Source: Candidatus Hydrogenedentota bacterium
Lineage (GTDB): Bacteria > Hydrogenedentota > Hydrogenedentia > Hydrogenedentales > SLHB01
Assembly: GCA_045863335.1 (NCBI GenBank)
Contig: BTVY01000009.1
Span: forward strand, 92,918-156,917
DNA: 64,000 nt
Reading direction: 5' to 3'
Shown: piece by piece, positions 1 through 25,880 of the stretch
How the letters are laid out: each line of letters opens with the position of its first letter
Position numbering within the stretch: the stretch's first letter is position 1
Translations under genes and position numbers: made by a program
The notes under the pieces: generated by a model
Databases searched by the model: none
Told to the model about the DNA's origin: nothing
The model's input: the letters and a program-made list of their open reading frames with translations, nothing else

Positions 1-580
1 GTTTTACAAGAAGTTCATTCCGGCAATTCGTGGCTCGTCACTCGTACAGGCCGCGTCCGCCGAGTATTTCGATGAGAACATTCGAAGAGGCCGCCCCGGA
101 ACGTTGATGGTGCCTTGGAACACGGAAACAAGCGGATTGTCCGGCGAAGACTTATCCAAGATCACCGAATACTTGCGTAGCGCGCCTGTACCGGACGGTG
201 AGAGACTCGCCCCTGAACTTGAGCAGATTGCCGCCGATTCGAGTTTTCGGGCTGTGGGCGGCGTGTCACGCGGACTCGACCTGTTCCGGCGGCATTGTGT
301 CGGTTGCCACGGTCCCGTCGGCGAGGGACAACTTGGTCCGGCGATCAATAACCCTGTGTTTCAGCAAACCGCAACGGACGGATTTCTCTTCGTAACCATC
401 GCTGCCGGCCGCCGCAATACGGCCATGCCCGGTTTCCTCAACGAAGGGCAAGGCGGCTTAACAGAGGAAGACATTTCCAGCCTGGTCGCCTATGTTCGAT
501 CTCTTGGCGCCGAGCCAACATCGCAAGTAGCTGACGGGAATGTGGAGTCGAGCAACCCGGCGCTTGCCAGGAGTAACTAG
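1..580 (+). CDS. Multi-domain c-type cytochrome (CcoP/cytochrome c6-like domains), 5'-truncated by the window edge
   Basis: The frame is open from position 2 (FYKKFIPAIRGSSLVQAASAEYFDENIRRGRPGTLMVPW...). It contains CVGCH followed by GPAINNP...GRRNTAMPGF (distal Met). The upstream PAIRG...GRPGTLMVPW looks like the C-terminal half of a preceding heme domain. The stop lies 1 nt before the alpha-subunit ATG. Confidence 0.85.
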   Translation, partial: FYKKFIPAIRGSSLVQAASAEYFDENIRRGRPGTLMVPWNTETSGLSGEDLSKITEYLRSAPVPDGERLAPELEQIAADSSFRAVGGVSRGLDLFRRHCVGCHGPVGEGQLGPAINNPVFQQTATDGFLFVTIAAGRRNTAMPGFLNEGQGGLTEEDISSLVAYVRSLGAEPTSQVADGNVESSNPALARSN

Positions 581-581
581 T

Positions 582-3539
582 ATGTCGCCATTGAAAGACC
601 AGTCCAATGAACACGGGATCAGCCGCCGGCAATTGCTGAAAACGGGAGGATTGCTGGGCTTCGCGGCGCTGTTTCCACCAAGCGCCCGGGCCGCCCTCGA
701 AGAATTCGACATTGTCGATGTCAATCCGCTGGAGAACTATCCGTACCGCGGATGGGAAGATCTGTACCGCAAGCAGTTCACTTGGGACCGCGTCGTCCGC
801 TCGACCCATTCGGCGAACTGCACCGGGTCCTGCTCGTGGAAAGTGTACGTCAAGGACGGCGTCATGCTTCGCGAAGAACAGGCCGCCGACTATCCGCGGA
901 TCAGCGAAGATCTGCCGGACTACAATCCGCGTGGTTGTCAGAAGGGCGCGTGTTTCGTCGAGTACGTGTACGGCGCCCAGCGGCTCCGGTATCCCCTCAT
1001 TCGAATGGGCGAGCGGGGAGAGGGGAAGTGGCGCCGGGCCTCCTGGGATGAGGCTCTCCAGCTTATCGCGGAGAAGGTGCTCGACAACGTATACAATTAT
1101 GGACCCGATACCAATACGTTCTTTTCGGTCATCCCGGCCATGTCCCCCGTATCGTTTTCGGCGGGATCGCGCCTGGCGCACTATCTGGGCGGCGTGTTTT
1201 GTTCGTTCTACGATTGGTACTGCGATTTGCCGCCGGGTGAGCCGATTACGTGGGGCGTACAAACCGAATCGTGCGAATGCGCCGACTGGTTTAATTCGAA
1301 ATACATCGTGCTATGGGGAAGCAATATCTGCCAAACGCGAATCCCCGACGCGCACTTCGCGTGGGAGGCGCGTTATAACGGCGCGCGAATTGCCTGCGTC
1401 TCGCCCGACTACAACAGCAGCGCCATTCACTGCGACCAGTATGTCCAGATTCAACCCGGCACGGACGCCAAGCTGGCACTTGCCGTTTGCCGCTGGCTGA
1501 TTGAGAACAATCACATCGACGAGCCTTACGTGAAGATGCACACTGACCTGCCGCTACTCATTCGCACGGATACCCAACAGTTCTTGCGAGCTGAAGATCT
1601 GCCCGCCAACGAGCGTGGTGCTGTCCCCAACACGAGTTCCTGGTCAGGTGAGATTGCTTCGGAGGACGGGACGCCAGACCTTCAGGCGGTCTTCTATGTC
1701 TTCGATCGCGTGGCCAACCGTATCGCGCAAGTGCCCGGCAGCATGGGCTCGCCCGCCCAGTCACTCGATCTTGGCGGCTTGGATCCAACGCTTGAAGGAA
1801 CGTGGAATGTGACGTTGGCCGACGGAAGCGTCGTGCAGGTTACCACCGTGTTCAGTCGGCTCAAGGAAACACTGGCCTCATCGGACTATTCAGCGTCGGG
1901 CACGGCCCGATCCTGCGGTTTGACTGAACGAGATTTCCTCGAGTTCGCGAAGGGGTTTACACGAAAACCGGCAATGATTATTCACGGTGCCGGCACCAAT
2001 CACTGGTATCACAACGACCTCTTGAATCGTGCCATGATACTGGTCGTGGCATTGACGGGAAACGTCGGCAAGAACGGCGGCGGGTTCAATCACTACGTGG
2101 GGCAGGAACGCATCTGGCCCGAGCATGGATTCAAGACGCTGGCATTTCCCGAGGGCGGCTCGAAGCAGCGGTTTCAGAACATGACCCTGTGGACGTATTG
2201 CCATAGCAAGCAGCATGACCCACACCCGATCAACGGCAAGCCGATCGAGCACTACATTCTGGACTCCGTCCGGAACGGATGGATGCCGCTGTGGCCGAAG
2301 AACGATTGGGCAAGCCTCACTCCCGAGCAAATGCACGATCTACCCCGCAAGCCGCGCGCCTTATTCGTCTGGCGCGCGAACTATCTCAACCAGGCGAAAG
2401 GCAATGAAGCAATTATTCGATCACTCTGGAAAGACCTGGATCTGATTGTCGACATCAATTACCGCATGGACACTACCGCGCTTTACAGCGACATCGTGTT
2501 GCCTGCTTCAACCTACTATGAGAAGACGGACCTCAACTCAACGGACTGCCATTCGTTTATGCATCCGTTCTCGAAAGTGCTGGACCCGCTGTTCGAGTCA
2601 AAGACCGATTGGGACATCTTCGCTGCATTGGCAAAAAAAATTGAAGAAGTTGCGAGGTCGCAAGGGCTATCGCCGTATGAGGACCAGGCACTGGACTGGT
2701 CGCGGGACTTCTCCCAGTTGTATGCAGCCTGGTCCGCGCAGGGTTCTCTACAGACCGATGAAGAAGCCTGCAATTTCATCCTCGGTCATTCCCCGGAAAC
2801 GCAAGGGATGACGTATCACGGCATACAAGACCAGCCCAAACGATTCGTTGGCATCGATGCGGAAGCGTGGAATAGCGAGGTCGAGGAAGGCCGCGCCTAT
2901 GCGCCCTTCACCCATCAGATCGAGAAAAAGCGGCCCTGGCGGACACTGTCCGGAAGGCAACAGTTCTACATCGACCACCCCTGGTTTATTGATTTCGGCG
3001 AGCAGCTTCCTGTCCACAAAGAGCCCGTCGAGGATGTCGAGTACCCTCTATACTGGAACACGCCTCATGGCCGCTGGTCGATTCACTCAACCTGGCGCGA
3101 CAACCGCTACATGCTTCGTCTCCAGCGCGGGTTGCCCATCGTGTACCTTCACCCCGACGACGCAACGGCGCGGGGAATTTCCGACAACGATTGGGTTCGG
3201 ATATACAACGGCGAAGGTGAAGCGATTGTACAGGCGAAGATACTGCCCGGCGAAAAGGCCGGTCGCCTCACCATGTACCACGGCTGGGAAAAGTTTCTCG
3301 GATTCCAAAACGGCGGCTGGCAGTCCCTCACGTACATCAAGATTAAACCGACTCAACTCATTGGTAAATATGGGCATTTGAATTTCAAACTGAACTACTG
3401 GGGACCCACCGGGAACAACCGCGATATTCGAGTCGAGATCGCCAGGTATGACGGTCCTATTGCGGAATTCGAGCCGAACTCTCCGGCCGGATCGGAGTCG
3501 CGAGTCGATCCTCCGGTCGCGGGAACTAAGGTCTTATAA
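582..3539 (+). CDS. narG: Tat-exported type II DMSO reductase family molybdoenzyme alpha subunit (periplasmic nitrate reductase NarG-type, pNar)
   Basis: Twin-arginine signal SRRQLLK; FS0 motif HSANCTGSC...NPRGCQKG; Mo-ligand Asp motif SFYDWYCDLPP; HYVGQE; TPHGRWSIHS; C-terminal NYWGPTG. I chose ATG 582 over the ORF-track start at 540. Confidence 0.85.
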   Translation: MSPLKDQSNEHGISRRQLLKTGGLLGFAALFPPSARAALEEFDIVDVNPLENYPYRGWEDLYRKQFTWDRVVRSTHSANCTGSCSWKVYVKDGVMLREEQAADYPRISEDLPDYNPRGCQKGACFVEYVYGAQRLRYPLIRMGERGEGKWRRASWDEALQLIAEKVLDNVYNYGPDTNTFFSVIPAMSPVSFSAGSRLAHYLGGVFCSFYDWYCDLPPGEPITWGVQTESCECADWFNSKYIVLWGSNICQTRIPDAHFAWEARYNGARIACVSPDYNSSAIHCDQYVQIQPGTDAKLALAVCRWLIENNHIDEPYVKMHTDLPLLIRTDTQQFLRAEDLPANERGAVPNTSSWSGEIASEDGTPDLQAVFYVFDRVANRIAQVPGSMGSPAQSLDLGGLDPTLEGTWNVTLADGSVVQVTTVFSRLKETLASSDYSASGTARSCGLTERDFLEFAKGFTRKPAMIIHGAGTNHWYHNDLLNRAMILVVALTGNVGKNGGGFNHYVGQERIWPEHGFKTLAFPEGGSKQRFQNMTLWTYCHSKQHDPHPINGKPIEHYILDSVRNGWMPLWPKNDWASLTPEQMHDLPRKPRALFVWRANYLNQAKGNEAIIRSLWKDLDLIVDINYRMDTTALYSDIVLPASTYYEKTDLNSTDCHSFMHPFSKVLDPLFESKTDWDIFAALAKKIEEVARSQGLSPYEDQALDWSRDFSQLYAAWSAQGSLQTDEEACNFILGHSPETQGMTYHGIQDQPKRFVGIDAEAWNSEVEEGRAYAPFTHQIEKKRPWRTLSGRQQFYIDHPWFIDFGEQLPVHKEPVEDVEYPLYWNTPHGRWSIHSTWRDNRYMLRLQRGLPIVYLHPDDATARGISDNDWVRIYNGEGEAIVQAKILPGEKAGRLTMYHGWEKFLGFQNGGWQSLTYIKIKPTQLIGKYGHLNFKLNYWGPTGNNRDIRVEIARYDGPIAEFEPNSPAGSESRVDPPVAGTKVL

Positions 3540-3550
3540 GGAGCACACCG

Positions 3551-4852
3551 ATGTCGAAGCACCAATACGCCATGGTGATGGACCTCAACAAGTGCATCGG
3601 TTGCCAGACCTGCACGCTGGCGTGCAAGAAGCAGTGGACCGATGGCGACGGCATGGACTACATGTATTGGAATAACGTGGAGACCCATCCCGGCATCGGA
3701 TATCCGCGCGGTTGGCACACGATCGGAGGCGGATTCGATGCGCGCCGTAACTTGCGGCCGTCTCCATTGCCGCCCAAAGAGGACTACGGCGAGGCATTCG
3801 AGTATGACTACGGGCAACGCCTCTACGGCGGGCGGAACAAGCCCGTGATGCCGAACCGGCCGCCCACGTACACGCCAAACTGGGACGAAGACGTGGGCGG
3901 TTGGGACAAGGACAATCCCTATTTCTTCTATTTGCCCCGAATCTGCAATCACTGCACCCATCCGGCCTGCCTCGAAGCGTGCCCGCGCAAAGCGATCTAC
4001 AAGCGCACGGAAGACGGCATCGTGTTGATCGACCAGGAACGGTGCCGCGGATTCCGATACTGCATTAAGGCCTGCCCGTACAAGAAGATCTACTACAACG
4101 AAGTGACCGGCAAGAGTGAAAAGTGTATCTTCTGTTATCCGCGCCTCGAAAAGGGCCAGGTCAACGCCTGCGCCGCTCAGTGTCCGGGTCGCATCCGGTT
4201 TGTCGGTCTCTTGGACGATCCCGAGTCTCCAGTGCACAAACTCGTATTGAAGTATCGTGTGGCGCTGGGCCTCTTTCCCGAAAAGGGCACCCATCCCAAT
4301 GTTTTCTATGTGCCGCCCTTTAATCCCCCGAAAGCAGGGAGCGCGGGCAAGAGCATTCTCGAGGACCCGCGGCTGCCCCTGGACTACCTCATCTACCTGT
4401 TCGGTCCCGACGTTGTGCGCGTCATCCAATTCATGGAGGGAGAGCTGACGAAAGCACAGTCAGGTGGACAGAGCGAAGTGCTTCAATTGCTCATCGGACG
4501 AGACGCTTCCGTTCGATATCGCGTTGTTCCCGACATTGTGCGCGCGGCTGCAAACCGGGACGTGGCGCAGAAGATGGAGCAGTCGCCGGCGGGGGGGCCG
4601 CCTCAGGCGATTCTCGGAACGCCTGCTCAATCCGGTGTCAAACCGCCGCCGGCCAGGCACGCGCTCGGTTCCAAGCACGTCCCTCCCACGCCGGAGGTTG
4701 CGATGGCGTTTGGCGTTCCTGTAGACAATCCCGGCTCATCGTGCAACACATCGATAGGAGCGGGTTGCGCGGGCTGCGCTGCGCAAACGGCCTGTGGGGC
4801 CGCGCAAAAGGGACCGCGCCACCCAGGTGAGGAGGGAATGACATGGACGTAA
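3551..4852 (+). CDS. narH: Type II DMSO reductase family Fe-S beta subunit (NarH/PcrB/SerB-like) with C-terminal extension
   Basis: Four Cys groups: CIGCQTCTLAC, CNHCTHPACLEAC, CRGFRYCIKAC (3Fe-4S type) and CIFC...CAAQC. Also WNNVET and FFYLPRICNHC, with an AGGAG RBS upstream. Confidence 0.9.
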   Translation: MSKHQYAMVMDLNKCIGCQTCTLACKKQWTDGDGMDYMYWNNVETHPGIGYPRGWHTIGGGFDARRNLRPSPLPPKEDYGEAFEYDYGQRLYGGRNKPVMPNRPPTYTPNWDEDVGGWDKDNPYFFYLPRICNHCTHPACLEACPRKAIYKRTEDGIVLIDQERCRGFRYCIKACPYKKIYYNEVTGKSEKCIFCYPRLEKGQVNACAAQCPGRIRFVGLLDDPESPVHKLVLKYRVALGLFPEKGTHPNVFYVPPFNPPKAGSAGKSILEDPRLPLDYLIYLFGPDVVRVIQFMEGELTKAQSGGQSEVLQLLIGRDASVRYRVVPDIVRAAANRDVAQKMEQSPAGGPPQAILGTPAQSGVKPPPARHALGSKHVPPTPEVAMAFGVPVDNPGSSCNTSIGAGCAGCAAQTACGAAQKGPRHPGEEGMTWT

Positions 4853-5577
4853 TGCGTGCGATACTCGTAATGGCAATCGTGGGATTCGCCTCGGCTGCCG
4901 CCGAACCAAATGCCGAAGATAAGGCGGCGTTGGAAATACCATCCGAAGCCGCTCCTGAGGTTTCCGTCGAGGAGCTGTTGGACGCGGACAATGCGGCGTG
5001 GCGTGCGGCTCCCGCATTTGCCGTCCATTTCAACCGAACCCCTCCTGTCTATGCGACCGACACGATGGACGACGGCGACCGTCCGTCGATGACCGTCCAG
5101 GTTCTGCGGCTGCCAAGCAATGACGTTGTATTTCGCGTTCAATGGCAGGACCCGACTGCCGATCAGGTGGCGAGCGGCGCCCGTTACCCGGATTCCGGAG
5201 AAGACCACATTTACAAAAGCCATTCAACGGCAACGGATACATTCCCGGACGCCTTCTGCATTATGGTTCCCAAGCAACGCGGGCAGCATCTCTCGTATCC
5301 GTCCATGATGATGGGCGAAGGAAGCAACCCTGTCGATCTCTATTATTGGAAGGCCGGAAAGGGATTCGAGCTTTTGAATGCCCATGGCCGCGCCACGACT
5401 GCCGCTGTCGCTGAGGAGGTTCGCGGTTCCGCGCGTCGTGCCGCCGATGATTGGACCGTGACCATGGCATTACCAAATCTGACCAGCCAAACTCCTGTTT
5501 GTTTCGCGCTCTGGAATGGAGACAAGGATCACCGGGACGGCCTGAAGTACTTTAGCTTGTGGTATGAGGTGGAGTGA
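4843..5577 (+). CDS. Secreted heme-b gamma subunit (EbdC/SerC/DdhC-like, DOMON-type)
   Basis: Sec-type signal peptide; motifs WQDPT, FPDAFCIMVP, MMMG...PVDLYYWKA and ALWNG..RDGLK (Met/Lys heme ligands of EbdC-type subunits). Alternative start at 4852 (TAATG overlap with the beta stop). Confidence 0.75.
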   Translation: MDVMRAILVMAIVGFASAAAEPNAEDKAALEIPSEAAPEVSVEELLDADNAAWRAAPAFAVHFNRTPPVYATDTMDDGDRPSMTVQVLRLPSNDVVFRVQWQDPTADQVASGARYPDSGEDHIYKSHSTATDTFPDAFCIMVPKQRGQHLSYPSMMMGEGSNPVDLYYWKAGKGFELLNAHGRATTAAVAEEVRGSARRAADDWTVTMALPNLTSQTPVCFALWNGDKDHRDGLKYFSLWYEVE

Positions 5578-6215
5578 TGACAGACCTTGCCCATAAGGAA
5601 GTCGAAACAAGTCCCGACATGCTTCTTGAGTGCGCCATGGCTTGGAAATATCTGCACGATCTTTTTCACGGCCCCAGCCCCGAGCAGTGGCGTTGGCTTC
5701 AGTCTGAATCCGCACAGGCCGCATGGCGGCTTCTGGCACAGTGGACCGGGCTTGAGAACTACGCCACGTTGCCGCTTGCGAATTCCTACGACTCGTACGC
5801 CGGGGAATATGTGGCCGCCTTCGAGGTCGGTCTTCCAGAGCCCCCGTGCCCGCTCATCGAGTCCCACTGGAACAAGCGAGATCCGGTGCCAAAAGTGCTC
5901 CACGAGAATATGCTGTTCTACAAACAGTTTGGACTGGAACTTCGCTCGTCGAGCAATGAAACTGCCGACCACCTGCGCCACCAGTTGGAATTTGTGCATC
6001 ACCTATTCCGGATGGAGCGGGAAGCGGTCATCGGCAACCGCATGGAGCACGCGGACCAGTGCGCCAGGGCACGAATCGAGTACTTGAACCGCCATCTCGG
6101 GTTCTGGGTGCCTCGGGCGTACCTTGCACTCGACAAGAAAATGCCAGGTTCGTGGTGCGCCCAATGGATGTTTTTGCTTTCCCAGTTTTGCCAGGAATTC
6201 TGTACGGAACACTGA
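5574..6215 (+). CDS. TorD/DmsD/NarJ-family molybdoenzyme maturation chaperone (delta subunit)
   Basis: Motifs PPCPLIES, FYKQFGL, ETADHLRHQLEF and HLGFWVP; overlaps the gamma-subunit stop (GTGATG). Confidence 0.85.
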   Translation: MMTDLAHKEVETSPDMLLECAMAWKYLHDLFHGPSPEQWRWLQSESAQAAWRLLAQWTGLENYATLPLANSYDSYAGEYVAAFEVGLPEPPCPLIESHWNKRDPVPKVLHENMLFYKQFGLELRSSSNETADHLRHQLEFVHHLFRMEREAVIGNRMEHADQCARARIEYLNRHLGFWVPRAYLALDKKMPGSWCAQWMFLLSQFCQEFCTEH

Positions 6216-6300
6216 CGCGGGAAAACCACGGCATTCGCTAGACCGCGTATGAATAACTGAGGATAAAGGACCTTCCTGCTACCGAATTCAAGGAGGAGTC

Positions 6301-6756
6301 ATGGAGATTCGGCACATCTACATATCGCCCGGTCACAATTTTCGCGGCCATCACGGACGGGAACCGGATGCCCATCCCGTCCTTGAGCTTATGGAAGTCG
6401 AGTGCGTCGCAGGGAAAGGCCTGATCGGCGACCGATACTACTGCTACGAAGAGAACTACAAGGGCCAGATTACGTTCTTCGCCTGGGAGGTCTATCAAGA
6501 TCTTTGCCGGCAGCTTTCCGTATTTGACCGTGACCCCTCTGTGCTGCGTCGAAACGTAATTGTGGAAGGTGTGAACCTTAACAGTCTTGTAAATTCCGAA
6601 TTCACGATCCAGGGGGTGGAGTTCTTTGGCGTCGAGGAGTGTTCCCCGTGTTACTGGATGGAGCGCGCGTTCGCACCCGGCGCTGAAGAGGCGTTGAAGG
6701 GCAGGGGAGGACTGCGGGCGCGAATCGTATCCAACGGACTTCTGCAAAGACTTTGA
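6301..6756 (+). CDS. MOSC domain protein
   Basis: Motifs GKGLIGDRY, RRNVIVEG..LN.LV, CSPCYWM and GRGGLRARI; strong AGGAGG RBS. Confidence 0.85.
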   Translation: MEIRHIYISPGHNFRGHHGREPDAHPVLELMEVECVAGKGLIGDRYYCYEENYKGQITFFAWEVYQDLCRQLSVFDRDPSVLRRNVIVEGVNLNSLVNSEFTIQGVEFFGVEECSPCYWMERAFAPGAEEALKGRGGLRARIVSNGLLQRL

Positions 6757-7351
6757 GGTCTTAGGAGCATCCCACGCTATTTGCGACATAGGTGAACCTC
6801 CCTCCGACGCAAAACAAGTCATTCAACCGGGTGACATCCAAGGTTTTGGAGTGCGACGCACCTTGGCGGTGTCTTCATGCTCCTGCGTCTTCGATAGGAT
6901 CCGCATGACGGCAATGGGACTTGCCTTCGTGCCATGCCGGTATTGGAATCTCGAGATAGTCGAGCGGCGTCGTGCCGAGGTTAGCGATCGCGGCGTCGGG
7001 TGCCAGCGTTCGGTCGGCAAACAGCATTCGCGCGCTGATGTCCACGGCTGAAGCCACATGGTCTCCGCTCATTTGACGAGGTTCGGCTCGAATAACGCAT
7101 GCGGTGCAGTGCCTTCGCGCGTTTGCCCACCTGCATCGGCTTAAACCATACGGAGATATTGGCGCTCGCCCGCGAAAGCTGGCTTGTGAGATTCCGGGCG
7201 AATGCGCGTAATCAAGATTCCTCTATTCGCTATGTCAAACACTTGCTGGCGACCGGTGCGATCGCGTCAGTGCCGTCGCCGTCCGGCGACGAATTTCCGA
7301 ACGTCTTCACCTGATTGCAGTGTGGTTGCAAGTATCCGGCGTTTCCTATGA

Positions 7352-8887
7352 TCACGTCCCGTCTTTAAGGACCAATATCCAGTCGTTGCCGTCGCCGGGG
7401 CTGTCCGGTGGGTCGAACTCCTGGATGGGAGCGGAGGGCCCGCTGGGAATGTTCTCCAAGAAGGCCGTTGCATCGGCGAACTCTTTGTCGTCAGCTCTCC
7501 ATTGTCCGTTGCGGGGATTGAACCAATAGGCGCTCTTTGGTTGCGGCGAAAGCCGGTCCATCTTGACGCGGATGTTCCGGCCGTTGGCGCTGTATACCAT
7601 GGCGTAATCGCCGTTGGCGCCGCGTGTGGCTTGTAGACAGCTCGAGCGAACTCCTTCCCCGACGTCCATGCCTCCGGTATCGCCGTCGATCAGCGTTTGG
7701 TCCGGAATCCGGTCCAGAAACTGGTCGTTGGAAAGGGTTGCCATGAGGTCAACGAGATGCCGCATATCGATGGCGCCAGGTTCGTCGAGGCCGGCTTTCC
7801 ACCCACGGGCGTTGTCGGTGGTGACGGGTTCGTCCAGGTCTAACACTCCGCTGTCAAAATGGAATACGTTCATGCTTCCGTAGGTGATCCCGAAGCCTCC
7901 GGCGAAGACGGTCTGATAGGACTGGAATCGGATCTGCCAGTCCCTGTAGACGCTATCGCCCCGGGTGCGGGCCTCATATCCGCCTTCGAAGAGCCATGTG
8001 GGTTTCGCCGGAGACAAGCGGTAATCATGTTCCACTGCGACGTTTTGGTCGGTGGGTTGGTCCTGGATCGAGTTGAAGTCCAGCCAAGGGTCGTTGTGGA
8101 ACCATTCCGATGAGTTCGGATGCCACTTTCGTGGGTGGTAACTCATGATCGTCGTGCCGTAATCGGCCTGCAAATCCTGCTTGTCGACGTTATTCACGCC
8201 ATCGGCGACACCTTCCGCCACAGCCCGAAACACGGGCCGGTAGTCCCTGTCGCCATACACGGCACTACGGTCTCCGCCGATCATCCAGATCACATTCTTC
8301 TTGTCGTGAAATCGCCGGCCGATCCAGCGGCCGTATCCGTATGCGTTGCCGGAATTCAGAACGATTTCCTCGGTGGGTTCGCCCTTCACGTAACTTCCCG
8401 CCACGCTTCCGCCCCACGCAGGGAGCAAGATCACCGCCAATCCATGGGCGTCTGCCACGTCGATGATATATTGCAGGTGATCCCAGTAGTCGTATTCCTC
8501 GGGATCTTCGGAGTTCTCCCCCGGCGTGGTAATGGGACGTTCCGGATTCCAGGCGCCCTCCCGAACCTCAAATGGATAGTCTCCGTACGCATTGGCCTCG
8601 ATACGAAGTCCTTCGTAAGAGGGGAAGGCGACTAGTGCAACTGTGTTGAATCCCTGCTCCTTTCGGTGCTGGAGATAATGCTCGACGTCTTCGCGCGTCA
8701 GTTTCCACGCGATCGCCCAAGCGGTATCGGCCACGGCGAAGAACCCCGTGCCGTCCGGGTGGATCAAGAAGCGGCCATTGTCGCTGACGCGTAGATCATT
8801 GGCGCCTTCGGCCCAAAGGGGCGTTCCCGGAAGGAATATGGATAGGATCGATAGAACGAGGCACGATAAGTGGGTTTTCAGTTTCAA
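7352..8887 (-). CDS. Secreted DUF4038/GH140 (apiosidase-like) glycoside hydrolase with C-terminal collagen-binding-like domain
   Basis: Signal peptide; motifs NGRFL..DGT.FF..ADTAW, RK.QGFN, NVIWMIGGD, KPTWLFEGGYE and YWFNPRNG. Likely start is TTG at 8887 after GAAGGG. The ORF-track extension to 9235 overlaps the divergent gene. Confidence 0.8.
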   Translation of the reverse strand: MKLKTHLSCLVLSILSIFLPGTPLWAEGANDLRVSDNGRFLIHPDGTGFFAVADTAWAIAWKLTREDVEHYLQHRKEQGFNTVALVAFPSYEGLRIEANAYGDYPFEVREGAWNPERPITTPGENSEDPEEYDYWDHLQYIIDVADAHGLAVILLPAWGGSVAGSYVKGEPTEEIVLNSGNAYGYGRWIGRRFHDKKNVIWMIGGDRSAVYGDRDYRPVFRAVAEGVADGVNNVDKQDLQADYGTTIMSYHPRKWHPNSSEWFHNDPWLDFNSIQDQPTDQNVAVEHDYRLSPAKPTWLFEGGYEARTRGDSVYRDWQIRFQSYQTVFAGGFGITYGSMNVFHFDSGVLDLDEPVTTDNARGWKAGLDEPGAIDMRHLVDLMATLSNDQFLDRIPDQTLIDGDTGGMDVGEGVRSSCLQATRGANGDYAMVYSANGRNIRVKMDRLSPQPKSAYWFNPRNGQWRADDKEFADATAFLENIPSGPSAPIQEFDPPDSPGDGNDWILVLKDGT

Positions 8888-9062
8888 GGTGTACTTCCCT
8901 TCATAATACCCGGAGTCTTGGCGAACAGGCCGACCGTACAGGGCCGACAAGTTTGTAGCATAGGGCGGGATAGTTCGACAATGTGATCGCGCATCCCTCA
9001 CGACGGCACTTGGCAATACTTGCCCGGAACAGGTATAACCTGCCCGGGGAGGGGAGCAAACG

Positions 9063-10097
9063 ATGGAATCATGCAACATGGGACGGAGGACGTTTGTCTT
9101 GAGTACAGGCGCAGCAATCGCGGGATCGTTGTCGACATTGGGCGCAGGGGCGGTGGCGTCTGAAGGTACGGCGAAGATACCGCCGTTCCGGGGGATGATG
9201 CCGATCATGGCGACTCCGGTAGATGGGGAGTACAAGGTCGACGTGGCCAGTCAACGGCGGCACGTGGAGTATTGCATTCAATGCGGCGCGGTGGCCATCG
9301 GTCACTTCGCGTACGCGTCGGAATTTCAGAAAATCTCGGATGCCGATCGTTCACAATTACTGGACGTGGTGGTGGAACAGGTAGCAGGGCGCATCCCGTT
9401 TTTCGCGGGGGTGACGGGACGCACGGCAGTGGACACGGTTCGTTACGCGCGTGAGGCGAAAACGCGCGGCGCGGACCTCATCATGGTTTCGTTGCCGTTT
9501 GAAGAACAATTGGATCAGGAATCCACGTTCACGATGTTCCGCGAGATCGGCTCGACGGTCAGTTTGCCCATCATCATCCAGGACACGCCGGCGACCGCGG
9601 ATGTGCTCACGCCTGAGTTGGTCATGCGTATCGCCAAGGAGACGGGGCAGGTTCACTCGATCAAGGCGGAGAGCGCGGATTTCCTTACCAAGACGGCGGA
9701 CCTCATGCAGCACTTCGAGGGGACGATGCAGGTCATAGGTGGCGCGGGAGGACAGCACATGATTCACCTGTTGCGGCTCGGCGTGACGGCATTCATGACC
9801 GGCACGGAAGCGTTGGAGTTCCATGCGGCCGCGGTTGCGGCGTACTTGAAGGGCGACGCGGATGAGGCGGCGACGATTTACTTCACGAAGATTCTGCCTT
9901 ATTTCATGTTCTACAATTCGGGGAACTGGCAGCGCAATCTGAAAATGATGTTACACCTGCGGGGGATTATCGATACGCCGAACATGTGCCAGCCGGAAGA
10001 CGACATCCCGCCGGCTTATGGCGACGTGGTTATGAAGGAATTTCGGTGGGCGCTCGATCACATCGGCTGGACGAAAACCTGGCCGAACATTCCGTAG
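9063..10097 (+). CDS. DapA/DHDPS-family class I aldolase/dehydratase with twin-arginine-like signal peptide
   Basis: GMMPIMATP, ASEF, AGRIPFFAGV, LPIIIQD and Schiff-base Lys in IKAES. N-terminus is GRRTFVLSTGAAIAGSL...AVA. Confidence 0.8.
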   Translation: MESCNMGRRTFVLSTGAAIAGSLSTLGAGAVASEGTAKIPPFRGMMPIMATPVDGEYKVDVASQRRHVEYCIQCGAVAIGHFAYASEFQKISDADRSQLLDVVVEQVAGRIPFFAGVTGRTAVDTVRYAREAKTRGADLIMVSLPFEEQLDQESTFTMFREIGSTVSLPIIIQDTPATADVLTPELVMRIAKETGQVHSIKAESADFLTKTADLMQHFEGTMQVIGGAGGQHMIHLLRLGVTAFMTGTEALEFHAAAVAAYLKGDADEAATIYFTKILPYFMFYNSGNWQRNLKMMLHLRGIIDTPNMCQPEDDIPPAYGDVVMKEFRWALDHIGWTKTWPNIP

Positions 10098-10113
10098 GTC
10101 CGTTCGCTCCGGA

Positions 10114-11610
10114 CTACCCTTGGGGGACCTCATACGCGCCGATGCTGGGTTTCGCATCGCCGGGAAGTGGTGTGCCCCAGAAGTCGCGGCCTCCGTTCTC
10201 ATCCATGACGAGGCCCGCGCCGATACACGGCGAATCGCTATTCAGCTTGTACTCCGGCAGCGATGACAGCGCTTCGACATTGGCCAACGAAGCCATACCG
10301 GGCCGGACGAGCTGCGGATCCGCCCAAATTCCGACAATCTTGTTGTCAACACGTTCCTGTCCCGTTGCAGCGCTCCACGCATCCAGGCTCGCGTGCCCGT
10401 CCAGCGCGAATGGCGCGCCCTTCAATCGCCAATAAAGGTTGCCTTCAAAATGGGCCTCGTGACAGGCTCCTTCGATGGACGGGCCGCCGCTGACGAAGAT
10501 GTTGTTTCGGAAGCGCATTCCCGGCATGCGCTTGCCGTAGAATCCGACAGCCGATCCGTCCTCGTTGTAGACCGTGTTATTGTAGATCTCCGCGTCCGAC
10601 ATGCCCTCAAGCCAGTAGATGCGGATTCCCGCATGTTGACCCGGCTTTCCATCGTTCTGGCTGATGTTATAGCGGATGATGTTGTTCTTCCACGGCAATG
10701 CATAGGGAAACATGCAGAGCAGGTAGCCGGGTCCATCGTTCCCATAGGACAAGTTGTACTGCATGATCGAATTCGTGACGCCGCCATCAAAGTCGAAGCC
10801 GCCTCCATCGTCGCTGGGGCTCTTGTTGTCGTGGGAAATGCAGTGTTGGATGACGACCCGATCGGCATTCCAGGCCCAGATGCCCACGGGCCCGTTTCCT
10901 TCGCGCGGCATGTCCCATCCATTGTTCATGGCTTCGCAGTATTCGATGGTGCATCCGCGCACGAATCCCGCCACAATTCCGTTGCCGCTATGGTTCGTGA
11001 GATTTGCCGGATTTCCGGGATTGTTTTCGGCGATACAACGTACGATACGAACGTTCTCAGACCAGAGTTCCTCGTCGCCCACCTGAATCCCCGAACTGCC
11101 GTTGTTATGCGCGTGGACGGAGTCGATCAAACAATCCTGAACGCCTTCGACCAATACGCCGCAGTGACGGAATCCCTGTACCTCGATCTGAGCGATGGTC
11201 GTTCCCTTGGCGTTGCGGACATGGACGCCACAACCGGCGTTATCATTTTTGCGCCCTGCGCCGGTGAAGTTGATGTTCTCGATCTTCAGGTAATCGCAGC
11301 CGTCGGCAACGACCCCGGAGCCGGTCCGGCCGTCGATGGCGGCACGGCCTTCGCCATAGGAACTTACGACGAATGGGCGTGACTCGGCGCCGCTATCGTG
11401 CGCGTCGAACGTCAGCGTACCCGGATACGTGTGTCCGCCTTCGAAAAGCAGGCGATCTCCCGGCTCAAACGAAGCGGCGTTGGCTCGTTCCACCGAACAC
11501 CAAGGGCTTGTCCGTTCCCCGGAAGCGAGGTCATCGCCCGACGGGCTGACGTGGTAATCAATGCCGTGTGCGAGTGCGTTCATGCCAACCATGATAAACA
11601 CCGGCAACAT
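10114..11610 (-). CDS. Secreted right-handed parallel beta-helix (pectin-lyase-like) protein
   Basis: YHVSPSGDD..SG....PW, PGDRLLFEGG, Asn-rich repeats, DGGGFDFDGG and C-terminal SPCIGAG...IGAYE. The start is uncertain (11610-11736). Confidence 0.8.
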   Translation of the reverse strand: MLPVFIMVGMNALAHGIDYHVSPSGDDLASGERTSPWCSVERANAASFEPGDRLLFEGGHTYPGTLTFDAHDSGAESRPFVVSSYGEGRAAIDGRTGSGVVADGCDYLKIENINFTGAGRKNDNAGCGVHVRNAKGTTIAQIEVQGFRHCGVLVEGVQDCLIDSVHAHNNGSSGIQVGDEELWSENVRIVRCIAENNPGNPANLTNHSGNGIVAGFVRGCTIEYCEAMNNGWDMPREGNGPVGIWAWNADRVVIQHCISHDNKSPSDDGGGFDFDGGVTNSIMQYNLSYGNDGPGYLLCMFPYALPWKNNIIRYNISQNDGKPGQHAGIRIYWLEGMSDAEIYNNTVYNEDGSAVGFYGKRMPGMRFRNNIFVSGGPSIEGACHEAHFEGNLYWRLKGAPFALDGHASLDAWSAATGQERVDNKIVGIWADPQLVRPGMASLANVEALSSLPEYKLNSDSPCIGAGLVMDENGGRDFWGTPLPGDAKPSIGAYEVPQG

Positions 11611-11742
11611 CTGCCGAATTGAGGCCGTCCATACGTGAAGGTGAAAAGACCCCTTTGACACGCATACCGGCGTATTTTTTCGGAATAACAGTGCCTCGAA
11701 CGAACTTTCGCACCGATTGGAATCAAAACAGAGCATCCACAG

Positions 11743-11952
11743 CTATTCCAGGCCCAGTGGCCCGGGCGACGGTGGCACACCATTTCCGAAGTTTTCGTTT
11801 ACCTGACGGATCAGTTGCGCTTTCCTTGGGTCGACCCGTTGAACCGCCGCCGACTGGGAATCTGCGTTGAAGTAATACGCATACACCGCGCCGGTAATGA
11901 GCACTGCAACGACGATTCCAATCAGCCACACCTTCTTTCGTGCCATTGCCAC
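11743..11952 (-). CDS. Small single-pass membrane protein, unknown function
   Basis: Basic N-terminus then a hydrophobic helix (WLIGIVVAVLITGAVYAYYF); GAGG RBS; co-oriented between the ABC permease and the beta-helix gene. Confidence 0.55.
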   Translation of the reverse strand: MAMARKKVWLIGIVVAVLITGAVYAYYFNADSQSAAVQRVDPRKAQLIRQVNENFGNGVPPSPGPLGLE

Positions 11953-12064
11953 GTCCCTCGTACGATCCGGTCGATCTCAGAAAACTCTACGAAACACCGC
12001 GCCGGAACTCGACCCGCAAAGTATCACATCGGCTCCGCACACGGAAACCGGCTGCTACGACGGC

Positions 12065-12907
12065 TCATGCCTTGAGCGCTCCGGAAGTCATCCCCTCAAC
12101 GAAGTCGCGTTGAAAAAACAGAAATGCCAGGATGAGCGGTGCGGTCGCGAGCAGACTTGCCGCCATCACGATGCCATAGGGAATGCTGGAATCGCCGTTC
12201 AGCAGGTAGATTACCAGGGGCAGCGTATACATTTCCTTGGTATGCAACAAGATCAAGGATCCCATGAGATTGTTCCAGGCAAAGATGAAGGTAAAGACTC
12301 CCAAGGCGGCAAGGGCGGGCCGAATCACGGGAAGGACCACGTGCCAATAGATCCCCAATTCGCTGCAGCCATCGATGCGCGCCGCTTCAAGCAAGTCATC
12401 ATGCACGTTCTCGCCGATGTATTCGCGCATCCAATAGATTCCAAACGCATTGGCGGCGCCAGGCACGATCATGGCCCAGTACGTATCGATTCCGCCTAAT
12501 TTCACCATCATCACGTATATCGGAATGATGAGGACGGAACCGGGAATCATCATCGTGCCCAGAACGAATACAAAGAGACTTTTTCGCCCCGGCGCGTCCC
12601 GGTACTTGGCGAAGGCAAAACCGGCGAGTGAGCACAAGAACAAAACCAGGCCGCAATGGCCCACCGAGATGACCAGCGAGTTCACAAAAGACCGAATGAA
12701 GTCGACGTTGGCCAAATTGATCACGTCTCGGAAGTTCGATGGGTGCCAAGGCGAAGGAATCCACTGGGGCGGGGCAGCGAAGATTTGTCCGGGCACCTTG
12801 AACGCCGAACTGAGCATCCAATAGAAGGGGAGCAGGAAGAGCACGGCCGCAAGCGTCAGAACGATATGCCCGAGAATGCGGTTCAGATACCGATACCCCC
12901 GTGCCAT
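12065..12907 (-). CDS. Carbohydrate ABC transporter permease (MalG-type)
   Basis: EAA loop LLEAARIDGCSE and C-terminal FQRDFVEGMTSGALKA; start MARGYRY at 12907. Confidence 0.9.
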   Translation of the reverse strand: MARGYRYLNRILGHIVLTLAAVLFLLPFYWMLSSAFKVPGQIFAAPPQWIPSPWHPSNFRDVINLANVDFIRSFVNSLVISVGHCGLVLFLCSLAGFAFAKYRDAPGRKSLFVFVLGTMMIPGSVLIIPIYVMMVKLGGIDTYWAMIVPGAANAFGIYWMREYIGENVHDDLLEAARIDGCSELGIYWHVVLPVIRPALAALGVFTFIFAWNNLMGSLILLHTKEMYTLPLVIYLLNGDSSIPYGIVMAASLLATAPLILAFLFFQRDFVEGMTSGALKA

Positions 12908-12911
12908 GGCG

Positions 12912-13835
12912 CTAGCTCCAATCGCTCCTGCGGAATCGCAGGATGAAGAGGGAGGCAACGAATACGACGGCGGCCACACCGTACGCCAGGCACGACGCGT
13001 AGCCAAAACGAAAATCGTCGAAGGAAGTATTGAAAAGGTACAACCCAAAGTTTGTAGAAGAACGCCCCGGACCGCCATAGGTCAGCATGAAAATCTCGTC
13101 GAACGCGTAAATCGTCCCGACGAGGGAGGTAATGGCGCAGAAGACGAACACCGGACGCATCAAGGGCAATGTGATATGCCACACACGGCTCCAAGCCCCG
13201 GCTCCGTCGATGCGTGCGGACTCGTAGTAAGTGCGCGGAATACCCTGCAAACCCGCCAGCATCAGCACCATTCCATATCCTGCCCATCGCCATATCAGCA
13301 GGATTGCAATAGACGGCTTGGACCACGTTTCGCTCGTGAGCCAGGGCAGGGGACGAAGGCCAAGCCACGGCACCGCCTCTTCAATCGCAGCGAGGGTCGC
13401 GTTCAGCAGGCCGCGCTCCGTGTCGTACAGCAGTCCGAAGACAAGTGCAATCGCGACCATCGGAGTGATGACGGGCAGAAAAAAGACGGCACGATACAGG
13501 CTCCTGAACTTGAGCCATGAGGCGTTGAGCAACACAGCCAAGAGGAACGCGGCGGCCAGCATGGGCGGAATGTAGAGGACGCAGATGACGAGCGTATTCC
13601 ACAACGAGTTCCAAAACGCCTCGTCATGCGCGGCAAGGCGGAGATTGTCCAGTCCAACCCATTTAATGGGGACGAAACCATCCCACTCGGTGAAGCTCAG
13701 CAGAAACGAGAAGACGATTGGGTAGAGTGCGAACGCCGCGAACAGAACGAAGAACGGCGAAATGAAGACGTAGAAGTGCCAATTGCGGCGGATTCGTTCC
13801 GCGTACCTTCGGCCGTCTGGCCGTGGCGCGCTCAC
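12912..13835 (-). CDS. Carbohydrate ABC transporter permease (MalF-type)
   Basis: EAA loop YYESARIDGAG, WSLWNT-like segment and TYGGPG. The GTG start overlaps the binding-protein stop (GTGA). Confidence 0.9.
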   Translation of the reverse strand: MSAPRPDGRRYAERIRRNWHFYVFISPFFVLFAAFALYPIVFSFLLSFTEWDGFVPIKWVGLDNLRLAAHDEAFWNSLWNTLVICVLYIPPMLAAAFLLAVLLNASWLKFRSLYRAVFFLPVITPMVAIALVFGLLYDTERGLLNATLAAIEEAVPWLGLRPLPWLTSETWSKPSIAILLIWRWAGYGMVLMLAGLQGIPRTYYESARIDGAGAWSRVWHITLPLMRPVFVFCAITSLVGTIYAFDEIFMLTYGGPGRSSTNFGLYLFNTSFDDFRFGYASCLAYGVAAVVFVASLFILRFRRSDWS

Positions 13836-15181: not shown

Positions 15182-15400
15182 TTTCTGTCTAGACCCGCCC
15201 ATGGTTGGCGCCGGAGCAACGCAAATCATGCGATACCATCGATCGGTGCGTACTTGCTCCGCGACGGAGCCAATGGGTAGAGGTTTCCGACTCACTCCCC
15301 GAGTACGCGGATAGACGCGCCTTTCATTCCTAAGAGGCAGTTGGTAACGTATGGGCTCGACTGATGTCAAACAACGGGAAAGAAGGAGAGCGGGGGACCT

Positions 15401-18551: not shown

Positions 18552-18718
18552 TCATCTCCCGGAATTGTTGGTACGATTCATGCCGTCACGGGGCGCTTCT
18601 GGGGTCCAGCGACGAGTCTCGCGCGCAGCACGGCACATCGGCGCTACCTCAGACCCCACACTACGCCATCATGTGGTATCCTTTTTCAAGGCAAGCCCGA
18701 AAGAGGTAGGCTGCAACG

Positions 18719-19813: not shown

Positions 19814-19975
19814 TTCCTGTCCGCCATGCCATTCTCGGCGCGCAGCGACTGGAAAATACCGTGTTACCCCGATACACTCGGTCTAATCATGCAGCCGGGG
19901 CGGCGTTCTCTGTTGCGCCGGCGGGCAGACGTGATCCGCACAAACGAAATCTCGTGAGAGAGGAATGGACTTTCC

Positions 19976-22935: not shown

Positions 22936-22980
22936 GTTTCGACTGCTGCGGATCCGCCAGCCTTGGACGTTCCAAAATCG

Positions 22981-23167: not shown

Positions 23168-23209
23168 TGATTAAACTTCAATAGCATCGGATGATCGAGG
23201 AACCGAATC

Positions 23210-24421: not shown

Positions 24422-24511
24422 CCGTCGCCGCGTCCACAGTGCGCGGCTCCCCATGATTCGTTAGAATGGTCTGAGCGTTCCGGGGAAGGAACGCAGGGGG
24501 AGGGCGTTTGC

Positions 24512-25852: not shown

Positions 25853-25880
25853 ACTGCTCCCTGCAAGGCAGGGGATCGCA

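Follow-up and report, generated by a model that had tools for sequence, protein, structure and literature searches.

Gene content of the locus

We analysed a stretch of 64,000 nucleotides (nt) from Candidatus Hydrogenedentota bacterium (GenBank assembly GCA_045863335.1, contig BTVY01000009.1), hereafter the window (G000:C9:92918-156917), together with the 17 kb to its left, which were examined as stretch L001. The subject of this study is a gene cluster at the left end of the window that encodes a nitrate-reductase-like molybdenum enzyme with an export signal. A first-pass annotation of the window had listed here a cytochrome c, an alpha and a beta subunit, an EbdC-like gamma subunit, a chaperone and a MOSC protein, and all six were recovered in Pfam and NCBIfam scans. 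Positions 1-6756 hold these six genes head to tail on the plus strand:

2-580, plus strand: 3' end of a cytochrome c gene (last 192 codons; the full gene starts left of the window)
540-3539, plus strand: alpha subunit (999 aa; translation could just as well begin at Met15, nt 582)
3551-4852, plus strand: beta subunit (433 aa, NarH-like)
4843-5577, plus strand: gamma subunit (244 aa, of the EbdC/haloarchaeal Orf7 type)
5574-6215, plus strand: chaperone (213 aa, NarJ/TorD-type)
6301-6756, plus strand: MOSC protein (151 aa, a small cytoplasmic MOSC-domain protein)

Neighbouring genes are separated by gaps or overlaps of at most 12 nt, save for 85 nt ahead of the MOSC gene, and the alternative alpha start at nt 582 sits right behind the stop codon of the cytochrome c gene. 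The following features were identified left of the window:

L001:10849-10924, plus strand: tRNA-Ala(GGC), 660 nt upstream of the Rrf2 regulator gene
L001:11588-12037 (G000:C9 87587-88036), plus strand: Rrf2-family regulator, about 4.9 kb left of the window
L001:12044-13930: NAD(P)-binding flavin adenine dinucleotide (FAD)/iron-sulfur protein, NfnB/GltD-like (628 aa, soluble)
about L001:13915-14382: Rieske protein (the likely start has an RRDFL motif and a membrane helix)
L001:14397-15944: cytochrome b of the b6 type (515 aa, eight predicted helices)
L001:15960-17498 (G000:C9 91959-93497): full cytochrome c (512 aa, six CxxCH motifs)

These six window genes are the downstream half of one operon, which runs from the Rrf2 gene through the MOSC gene in the order Rrf2 regulator, NAD(P)-binding FAD/iron-sulfur protein (hereafter the flavoprotein, gene gltD), Rieske protein, cytochrome b, hexahaem cytochrome c, alpha, beta, gamma, chaperone, MOSC. 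A scan for promoters and terminators stayed at chance level (3 promoter-like sites versus 4.9 expected, 13 terminator-like sites versus 14.0 expected); one of its promoter-like sites, TTGACA-17-GATACT, lies about 50 nt ahead of the Rrf2 gene.

The catalytic subunit

By its sequence, alpha is a pNarG-like catalytic subunit, predicted to bind molybdenum as the bis(pyranopterin guanine dinucleotide) (Mo-bisPGD) cofactor. It exceeds the cut-off of TIGR03479, the alpha family of type II dimethyl sulfoxide (DMSO) reductases (1114.8 bits, cut-off 984.75), and stays under that of the narG equivalog TIGR01580 (651.3 bits, cut-off 1084.15), which it matches in five stretches. Four motifs were located in it:

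621-641, plus strand: twin-arginine translocation (Tat) motif SRRQLLK (residues 28-34, read from the translation)
807-938, plus strand: [4Fe-4S] motif Hx3Cx3C...C (His90, Cys94, Cys98 and Cys133)
1203-1235, plus strand: SFYDWYCDLPP (residues 222-232)
2091-2108, plus strand: HYVGQE (residues 518-523)

The first-pass annotation of a Tat-exported alpha subunit with SFYDWYCDLPP and HYVGQE holds, as both motifs and SRRQLLK were located in the translation. The signal peptide covers about residues 15-51 and ends at ARA/A. The His/Cys motif at residues 90-133 probably corresponds to FS0 in the structures of NarG and EbdA. The predicted molybdenum ligand Asp229 aligns with Asp170 of the perchlorate reductase PcrA, whose segment reads FYDWYGDHPTG. 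In alignments to the PcrA entries 4ydd and 5e7o, Glu523 of alpha falls on the PcrA gate residue Trp461 (NHYVGQE here versus NHYIGQW in PcrA), which agrees with the earlier statement that PcrA has Trp at the Glu position. Along this line, the W461E mutant entry 5e7o (GQE) slightly outscores wild-type 4ydd (917 versus 912 bits). HYVGQE is presumably the segment equivalent to that of NarG, going by the W461E entry.

A protein search returned 7779 relatives at E<=0.001 among 8000 candidates; the best 120, which were listed, are 65-96% identical to alpha, and all 120 carry both FYDWYCDLPPG and NHYVGQE. Where these homologues are named at all, they are called 'complex iron-sulfur molybdoenzyme family reductase subunit alpha', 'molybdopterin-dependent oxidoreductase' or 'nitrate reductase alpha subunit'. 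Among 63 full-length alpha subunits from the genomic loci described below, 62 carry FYDWYCDLPPG (FYEWYCDLPPG in the remaining one), and NHYVGQE is likewise present in 62. The corresponding segments are FYDWYCDLPPA in E. coli NarZ, FYDWYCDLPNA in Thermus and FYDWYSDLPPG in Haloferax. Judged by these residues, the pocket of alpha is NarG-like, not PcrA-like.

The upstream Rieske/cytochrome b module

The first-pass annotation had suspected a bc-type complex left of the window and advised a look at the upstream contig for Rieske and cytochrome b genes. Both were found there, directly upstream and joined by the multihaem cytochrome c. The annotation's cytochrome c is indeed multihaem in its full length; within the window itself only the sixth CxxCH (CVGCH) is encoded. 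Its remark that NarI is missing can be extended to the whole host genome (99.39% complete, 0.94% contamination), in which NarI (PF02665) gave no match, hence none immediately upstream; the control search matched in E. coli, B. subtilis and C. glutamicum. The flavoprotein and the Rrf2 regulator, both encoded outside the window, are additions to the earlier picture.

The flavoprotein carries a DPD-type 4Fe-4S domain at the N-terminus and a 2x[4Fe-4S] ferredoxin domain at the C-terminus, with an FAD/NAD(P) pyridine-nucleotide oxidoreductase domain between them. The solved structures that match it best in a search of the PDB belong to NAD(P)H enzymes of the NfnB and GltD types, along with DPD-like ones. 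The Rieske protein contains the motifs CTHLGC and CPCHGS. In an alignment of 33 cytochrome b sequences the four haem-ligand histidines, with the 15-residue helix D spacing of the b6 type, and the APWY segment of the Qo site are invariant, and three N-terminal histidines (H47, H49, H54) are nearly so. The cytochrome c matches the Pfam families Cytochrom_C and Cytochrome_CBB3 and has one N-terminal transmembrane helix; six CxxCH motifs occur in 56 of 59 complete orthologous open reading frames.

The Rrf2 regulator gene ends 7 nt ahead of the flavoprotein gene, and its product has a Cys93/Cys101/Cys107 triad (Cx7Cx5C). In at least 11 other loci an Rrf2 homologue is encoded upstream of gltD, at a distance of no more than about 1.2 kb.

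The best named NCBIfam matches of the cytochrome b are ExtP (242 bits) and ExtQ (61 bits), both under cut-off. ExtP and ExtQ are the split b-type cytochromes of a Geobacter operon for selenite/tellurite reduction; they may represent another relative of the bc module that serves a different respiratory system.

Distribution and conserved gene order

A scan of one genome per prokaryotic species matched at least 644 stretches, at least 634 of which were confirmed as relatives. The cluster type is therefore not rare. The best 80 stretches yielded 77 loci. All eight genes, in the order gltD, Rieske, cytochrome b, cytochrome c, alpha, beta, gamma, chaperone, are present in 50 of the 77. Where more than 6.2 kb is available upstream of alpha (50 loci), gltD, Rieske, cytochrome b and cytochrome c stand there in order in all but one; in that lone exception, L044, the alpha match itself begins at residue 434. 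Carriers are found among Terriglobia and other Acidobacteriota, Gemmataceae, Phycisphaerae, Armatimonadota, Ignavibacteria, Omnitrophota, Eisenbacteria, Myxococcota, Pseudomonadota, Bacillota and Hydrogenedentota. In two Bipolaricaulota loci (L045 and L046; 55-57% identity) no bc module was seen.

One close relative, L039, which is labelled Candidatus Hydrogenedentota, matches window 2192-9582 along all of its 7393 nt at 94.8% DNA identity, flanking glycosidase gene included. An integrase or an IS110 transposase adjoins the clusters L072 and L009. These mobile-element neighbours, the flanking tRNA gene and the mixture of phyla on short branches of the alpha tree point to lateral spread of the cluster.

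Another locus, L002, is titled 'uncultured Nitrospiraceae' and shares 92.7% DNA identity with window 1-6739; it runs on into sequence that matches another contig of the host genome (C17). L002 is either a rearrangement or a mis-binned, mislabelled contig.

Position of the alpha subunit among its relatives

Among solved structures in the PDB, alpha scores highest with PcrA (912 bits for 4ydd, 917 for 5e7o), followed by E. coli NarG (565), EbdA (380) and Kuenenia NxrA 7b04 (247); PcrA itself reaches 445 bits with E. coli NarG. In direct comparison alpha is 45.8% identical to Haloferax pNarG (923 bits) and 44.2% to PcrA (902 bits), and on the same scale it scores about 545 bits with ClrA, E. coli NarZ and Thermus NarG. 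In a plasmid collection the best matches are haloarchaeal pNarG proteins, at about 46% over 95% of the length, and cytoplasmic NarG comes next at about 34%. In a library of representatives at 50% identity the whole clade collapses to a single sequence (P0052), behind which the scores drop from 1666 to 672 bits; this library holds no representative for PcrA or haloarchaeal pNarG.

PcrA loci were collected by a metagenome contig scan with the gate motif. Twelve of its 23 loci encode an alpha about 44% identical to ours, and ten of these twelve share the order alpha, beta, a gap of about 1 kb, chaperone. Of these, L098 was verified as PcrA at 1942 bits with 4ydd, and another scores 1745 bits.

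The phylogeny of the alpha subunit that the first-pass annotation had called for was computed with IQ-TREE in 'quick' mode (LG+C20 by posterior mean site frequencies, PMSF; 60 rows x 919 columns), with support from the Shimodaira-Hasegawa-like approximate likelihood ratio test (SH-aLRT) and rooted on cytoplasmic NarG. It took in one archaeal pNarG; named SerA, DdhA, EbdA and NxrA were left out, and the distances to them were judged from the PDB bit scores and from unnamed representatives. The periplasmic enzymes form one group (SH-aLRT 100), which opens in an unresolved four-way fork: PcrA (6 rows, 100), the bc-linked clade with our alpha (21 rows, 100), two unnamed representatives, and a group supported at 96. 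The latter unites the Bipolaricaulota relative L045, Haloferax pNarG and all Clr/Ser/Ebd-like representatives, which form a separate branch (100) within it. Branches in the bc-linked clade are short and phyla are mixed, e.g., Gemmataceae beside Alcaligenaceae, Polyangiaceae and Phycisphaerae. In this tree alpha belongs to a well-supported clade of its own that is nested in no characterised one. On sequence grounds the clade is about equally distant from haloarchaeal pNarG and from PcrA.

Comparison with known systems

The haloarchaeal pNar is the closest architectural counterpart. It shares the Tat-exported alpha, the NarG-type motif, the core gene order, the absence of NarI, the EbdC-like gamma and the TorD-like chaperone, and the Rieske/cytochrome b to Nar electron route proposed for it (PMC3509893). 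On plasmid pHM300 of Haloferax mediterranei the order is Rieske (NarB), cytochrome b (NarC), a small ORF, narG, narH, an EbdC-related protein and a TorD-type chaperone. The first-pass annotation had described our locus as a mixture of pNar catalytic features and Ser/Clr/Ebd architecture. The features are present, but the layout is the known one of pNar. To judge by sequence features, the cluster thus has the architecture of an archaeal-type pNar, and differs from it in its bacterial host, in its separate alpha clade, in the hexahaem cytochrome c gene between cytochrome b and alpha, and in the NAD(P) flavoprotein gene in front. Furthermore, the Haloferax gamma has a C-terminal membrane helix that is lacking in ours.

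The closest solved structure is that of PcrABCD from Azospira (4ydd, 5ch7, 5e7o), at 44% identity over nearly the full length. Both enzymes are periplasmic and have an Asp molybdenum ligand and a Phe-Tyr pair ahead of it; Trp461 of PcrA is replaced by Glu, and its GDHPT by CDLPP. PcrA loci show neither a bc module nor an EbdC-like gamma match beside beta. We rejected an assignment of alpha to PcrA, since it lacks the gate residue, its genome lacks chlorite dismutase and it stands outside the PcrA clade.

NarGHI (E. coli 1q16; Thermus NarCGHJI) has the active-site motifs, the NarH-type cysteines and the NarJ-type chaperone in common with our cluster. In contrast to NarG, alpha is only 34-35% identical, about 250 residues shorter, exported and without a NarI partner, and it roots outside the cytoplasmic NarG group. 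Membership of NarGHI was rejected on equivalog score, NarI partner and orientation.

The periplasmic nitrite oxidoreductases (NXR) and related Nar enzymes (Nitrospira, Kuenenia 7b04, Nitrotoga, Hydrogenobacter) are likewise periplasmic, with a Tat signal and a soluble haem-b gamma, but distant from alpha: 7b04 is matched over one stretch only. The Ser/Clr/Ddh/Ebd enzymes share the alpha-beta-gamma-delta set and TIGR03479. ClrA of Alicycliphilus is 34% identical, and FYDWY and HYVGQE were not found in it or in most of the nearest 50%-identity representatives.

No description of this bacterial cluster turned up in the main texts of open-access papers and bioRxiv preprints, supplements such as the trees of PMC12687941 and PMC9751292 apart. 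Archaeal pNarGH has been used to root a PcrAB tree published in 2015 (PMC4623255). Recent surveys of periplasmic NarG/NxrA in metagenome-assembled genomes (MAGs) treat the Nitrotoga-like lineage, and a bc complex is not mentioned in the part of the source available to us (PMC12687941).

Substrate and direction of the reaction

Whereas the first-pass annotation had left substrate and direction unresolved, we now consider nitrate reduction feeding a periplasmic nitrite reduction to be the best reading. It is favoured by the NarG-type site in all 120 listed homologues, by the NrfA of the host, and by nrfHA genes behind a related cluster. Three molybdopterin enzymes are encoded in the host genome in all. 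Its NrfA (448 bits, pentahaem) is encoded on contig 28 (G000:C28:5825-7270). The protein has five CxxCH motifs and no CxxCK motif for an active-site haem. NirK and NirS were not found in the genome. In L021, from an Acidobacteriaceae MAG, nrfH (NapC/NirT family) and nrfA (Cytochrom_C552) lie directly behind the chaperone gene (15330-16965), and the cluster is thereby tied physically to ammonium-forming nitrite reduction. Molybdenum-cofactor genes follow the chaperone in two other loci out of the 22 examined. Hemerythrin/RIC-like genes lie beside the clusters L035, L072 and L021, and NnrS beside L050.

Fifty cluster-bearing genomes were surveyed for partner genes. A strong NrfA (at least 134 bits) is present in 17 of them, and 18 exceed the cut-off. 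Full-length NarI (185-195 bits) occurs in three; 12 are over the cut-off, the rest of them being partial. A relative with an alpha homologue 75% identical to ours, Ca. Hinthialibacter antarcticus (P0022), leads in the same direction: its MAG was read as NarGH plus NrfAH and hence as able to carry out the dissimilatory reduction of nitrate to ammonium (DNRA), with the Rieske protein unmentioned in the accessible part of that paper (PMC9324843).

Could the enzyme run in the opposite direction? As a periplasmic nitrite oxidoreductase it would pass electrons from nitrite to cytochrome c and on to an oxidase, with the bc/NAD(P) module reversed to provide reductant. The active sites of NarG and NxrA are indistinguishable by sequence, nitrite oxidation arose several times in the family, and direction cannot be read from the sequences of NXR/Nar enzymes (PMC6050957); a route from cytochrome c to NAD(P)+ would moreover suit a nitrite oxidiser. 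Alpha, however, lies with pNarG and PcrA rather than with NXR lineages (in a tree holding no named NxrA), and its score with Kuenenia NxrA is far below those with NarG and PcrA (247 bits versus 565 and about 915). The host has NrfA and many polysaccharide-degrading genes, and nrfHA is joined to the cluster in L021. We regard nitrite oxidation as very improbable.

Slightly more improbable again is that chlorate, perchlorate or selenate is the physiological substrate, although a perchlorate reductase is the closest solved structure and archaeal pNar reduces chlorate and perchlorate (PMC6299022). PF06778, the family of chlorite dismutase, is present in 22 of the 50 cluster-bearing genomes, mostly at about 200 bits. 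A check of the whole host genome for this gene, as the first-pass annotation had suggested, gave no PF06778 match. In the two relatives compared (G015 and G048) the matches lie away from the cluster, and they may be haem-synthesis proteins of the HemQ type. We rejected PF06778 matches as a mark of chlorite dismutase, as the family also matches in Bacillus subtilis and other controls. The residues at the active site speak for nitrate as well: at the position of the PcrA gate all 120 listed homologues have Glu and none has Trp, and CDLPP matches NarG (FYDWYCDLPPA in NarZ) and not the GDHPT of PcrA. Finally, the PcrA loci form a separate clade whose gene order, with its gap of about 1 kb and without a bc module, differs from ours. 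Dedicated (per)chlorate reduction is, like nitrite oxidation, unlikely.

Proposed electron path and the NAD(P) subunit

Most likely the cluster encodes a periplasmic nitrate reductase that is fed by a Rieske/cytochrome b complex of its own. The outward-facing NarG drawing electrons through a bc-type complex, as proposed in the first-pass annotation, is supported by the upstream genes and by the absence of NarI; the electron path itself, like the physical association of the parts, we infer. Alpha and beta would be exported via Tat, and nitrate would be reduced to nitrite in the periplasm. In place of NarI, the operon's Rieske/cytochrome b complex would oxidise menaquinol at its Qo site. One electron would then travel from the Rieske cluster via the hexahaem cytochrome c, the haem-b gamma subunit and the NarH iron-sulfur clusters to the molybdenum site, and nitrite would go on to ammonium at the periplasmic NrfA encoded in the host genome. 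A precedent is given by haloarchaea, for which a path from a Rieske/cytochrome b complex via a periplasmic b-type cytochrome to NarH and NarG has been proposed and in which nitrate-dependent growth is antimycin-sensitive (PMC3509893, PMC4683180).

Most speculative of all is where the second quinol electron goes. It might return to quinone in an ordinary Q cycle. Alternatively, it might pass from the b haems to the iron-sulfur clusters of the cytoplasmic NfnB/GltD-like subunit and on to NAD(P)+, a route that has been put forward for two complexes of Kuenenia, Kuste4569-74 and Kustd1480-85. That the second electron reduces NAD(P)+ is a possibility we take seriously and nevertheless hold to be doubtful.

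A relationship to these anammox complexes is indicated by the Rieske protein, whose best match in the whole PDB is 9rk4 (Kuste4569, 72 bits), with 9rk3 (Kustd1480) in third place among 74 matches at E up to 0.001, essentially all of them Rieske proteins. In the Kuenenia complexes a b6-like cytochrome b and a SUIV-like subunit are combined with a cytochrome c of six or eight haems and with a cytoplasmic protein that is putatively an NAD(P) oxidoreductase; their Rieske proteins have potentials of +303 and +335 mV. Quinol bifurcation, with one electron each for a high-potential acceptor and for NAD(P)+, has been proposed for them. The paper on these complexes notes that for Kustd1480-85 no favourable partner reaction has been proposed, and the word nitrate does not occur in its main text (PMC12954380). 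Our operon shares with Kuste4569-4574 and Kustd1480-1485 the NAD(P)-binding FAD/iron-sulfur protein, the Rieske protein, the b6-type cytochrome b with SUIV-like helices and the membrane-anchored multihaem cytochrome c. In addition, H47, H49 and H54 of its cytochrome b may correspond to the place at which AlphaFold3 models of each anammox cytochrome b predict an additional haem b, bound to a histidine close to the N-terminus (PMC12954380). It differs from these complexes in its terminal enzyme, a molybdenum nitrate reductase instead of a HAO-like octahaem protein, and in its hosts, which are not anammox bacteria.

To place the module more broadly, 401 Planctomycetota genomes were searched with the flavoprotein alignment. 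Seventeen of them have full-length matches of at least 824 bits, and a second tier has matches at 477-625 bits. All 12 second-tier neighbourhoods that were fetched (L108-L119) encode gltD, Rieske and cytochrome b consecutively, and a cytochrome c match follows in 11, the exception being L115. In L113-L115 the cytochrome b is split into parts of 244 and 258 residues, followed by a six-CxxCH protein and an eight-CxxCH HAO-like Multi-haem_cyto protein, which by sequence is the layout of Kuste4569-74. The operon proteins are 35-37% (GltD) and 41-42% (cytochrome b) identical to those of L113-L115; the cytochrome c match is weak in L113 and L114 (46-48 bits) and was not found in L115, and the L113 Rieske protein reaches 112 bits with 9rk4. 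A different molybdoenzyme stands behind the module in L109 and L110, and seven second-tier loci have no adjacent terminal enzyme. Judged by this homology, the front half of our operon belongs to a family of modules that includes the anammox-type complexes, with the nitrate reductase as a plugged-in terminal enzyme.

In several of the seven loci without a terminal enzyme, the open frame that includes the flavoprotein is extended far at its N-terminal side and measures about 1050-1090 aa.

The same subunit might serve in the opposite sense, as an entry point at which NAD(P)H is oxidised and electrons pass into the b haems or Qi. The system would then act as an NAD(P)H:nitrate oxidoreductase without forming any NAD(P)H, and protons would still be released through the quinol loop. 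Such a role would fit hosts that look heterotrophic, with reductant to spare, in line with the glycoside hydrolases and sugar transporters in which the window is rich. Moreover, we take the solved relatives of the flavoprotein (NfnB-type, GltD, DPD-like) to be reversible with NAD(P)(H). A donor module tied to Nar also has a precedent in the Thermus nar cluster, which carries a dedicated NADH dehydrogenase (Nrc). However, a complex that takes in NAD(P)H alone has no obvious use for a Rieske protein and a Qo site, and these are nevertheless both retained in 49 of 50 loci. For the homologous anammox complexes, a direction towards NAD(P)H has been argued, with which their Rieske potentials are in agreement (PMC12954380). 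We consider the entry-point role unlikely, without dismissing it. The weight left beyond these two possibilities falls to an ordinary Q cycle or to something else.

On a broader scale, the clade might be the most widespread member of a modular family of bifurcating Rieske/cytochrome b complexes, making NAD(P)H during nitrate respiration, and at the same time the missing bacterial relative that links archaeal pNar and perchlorate reductase. This combined proposal is tentative and, as a whole, rather unlikely.

Several points weigh against a nitrate reductase fed in this way. We infer substrate and direction from motifs and context, and the 77 loci all stem from MAGs. A clear NrfA is present in only 17 of the 50 cluster-bearing genomes, and the activity of haloarchaeal pNar on chlorate and perchlorate makes a side activity on chlorate likely by analogy. 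The bc module is only distantly related to haloarchaeal NarB/NarC (Rieske 40% over 72 residues, cytochrome b 29.5% over 359); the haloarchaeal precedent is therefore an analogy and not an orthology. With respect to the anammox complexes, the cytochrome b is fused, with its eight helices, instead of split into b6 and a five-helix SUIV, and the alignment of 33 sequences shows no conserved N-terminal cysteine for a haem cN. NAD(P)+ reduction by any such complex, anammox bacteria included, is still a proposal (PMC12954380). The Rrf2 regulator was rejected as NsrR, because it stays under every NCBIfam subtype cut-off (IscR 72 bits, NsrR 42 bits), and its role as a sensor of NO would be a guess. Lastly, binding of the flavoprotein to cytochrome b is weakly suggested by complex prediction. 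Residues 1-335 of cytochrome b with the whole flavoprotein gave a score of 0.58 (best of three controls 0.00); at least 86% of contacts are shared between runs, and the partners, modelled from our own alignments, have a predicted local distance difference test (pLDDT) of at least 80. The mark applied is passed by 116 of 157 solved complexes and by 2 of 215 mismatched pairs, and scores of at most 0.60 were obtained for only 18 of those 157 and for both of the mismatches that passed.

Implications

In MAG studies these genes are counted as ordinary narG, e.g., in Ca. Hinthialibacter (PMC9324843). An outward-facing enzyme supplied via a bc complex would need no nitrate/nitrite transporter, would have a different proton yield and would deliver nitrite straight to a periplasmic NrfA. 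The question whether Rieske/cytochrome b complexes with an NAD(P) subunit bifurcate quinol electrons to NAD(P)+ has so far been raised for anammox bacteria, which are hard to grow, and this type of NAD(P)-binding subunit has been discussed only for them. Here a module of this debated kind shares a gene cluster with a defined high-potential acceptor, and does so in many lineages other than anammox bacteria, which offers more places for testing. Furthermore, the clade is as close to PcrA as the archaeal pNarG used for rooting PcrA trees (PMC4623255) and thus bears on the origin of perchlorate reductase.

Beta, gamma, chaperone and MOSC proteins

The beta subunit exceeds the cut-off of TIGR03478 (485.4 bits, cut-off 480.7), has 15 core cysteines in four groups, and is 56% identical to Haloferax NarH and 53% to ClrB. 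Its tail of about 100 residues (about 319-433; window 4505-4852) ends with a further cysteine motif:

4742-4795, plus strand: Cx7CxxCx5C, C-terminal tail of beta

CxxCx5C recurs in the beta tails of the sub-clade that holds the Omnitrophota, Eisenbacteria, Ignavibacteria and Hydrogenedentota loci and in that of one Bipolaricaulota locus, and was not seen in the beta subunits of Acidobacteriota, which are mostly about 333-340 aa long. The motif may form an extra metal or iron-sulfur site.

The gamma subunit is above the cut-off of Pfam EB_dh (41.4 bits, cut-off 33.3) and under that of TIGR03477 (95.3 bits, cut-off 169.85). With a signal-like N-terminal helix and no membrane anchor, it is predicted to be a haem-b protein that is soluble in the periplasm. 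Two of its residues, the Met of PSMMMG (153-158) and the Lys of DGLKY (232-236), have aligned counterparts in the Haloferax gamma and in ClrC, and are presumably the haem ligands, by analogy to EbdC. The chaperone matches Pfam Nitrate_red_del above cut-off (55.8 bits) and TIGR03482 under it (93.4 bits, cut-off 152.3).

The last of the six proteins matches Pfam MOSC (26.3 bits, cut-off 22.7) and gave no match in NCBIfam. A MOSC homologue stands behind the cluster in only 2 of the 77 loci, the nearest relatives L002 and L039; it is an accessory gene outside the conserved core.

Transcription and genomic neighbourhood

An RNA-labelled run (X1) was rejected as evidence of transcription: its contigs cover all 30 bins of 17.5 kb and genes of both strands evenly at about 6-10x, and are indistinguishable from carried-over DNA. 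In a wastewater metatranscriptome (X2), contigs of a relative with about 95-97% identity cover positions 3440-13879 of stretch L120, from gltD to the chaperone, including parts outside the search query; uncovered flanks carry no information. As these contigs give neither strand nor ends nor level, they hint at expression weakly at best. The tRNA-Ala gene accounts for a sharp peak that RNA-library contigs form at about 1890-1921 of L120.

To the right of the operon, window 7352-26795 is rich in genes for polysaccharide use:

7352-9235: apiosidase-like hydrolase
10114-11736: beta-helix protein
12065-15421: sugar ABC transporter genes
16809-18551: BNR/sialidase-like protein
19976-21928: 3-keto-disaccharide hydrolase
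24512-25852: alpha-L-fucosidase

The host looks like a heterotrophic glycan degrader. A DUF1559/N-methyl protein is encoded on the far upstream side, at L001:449-1360.

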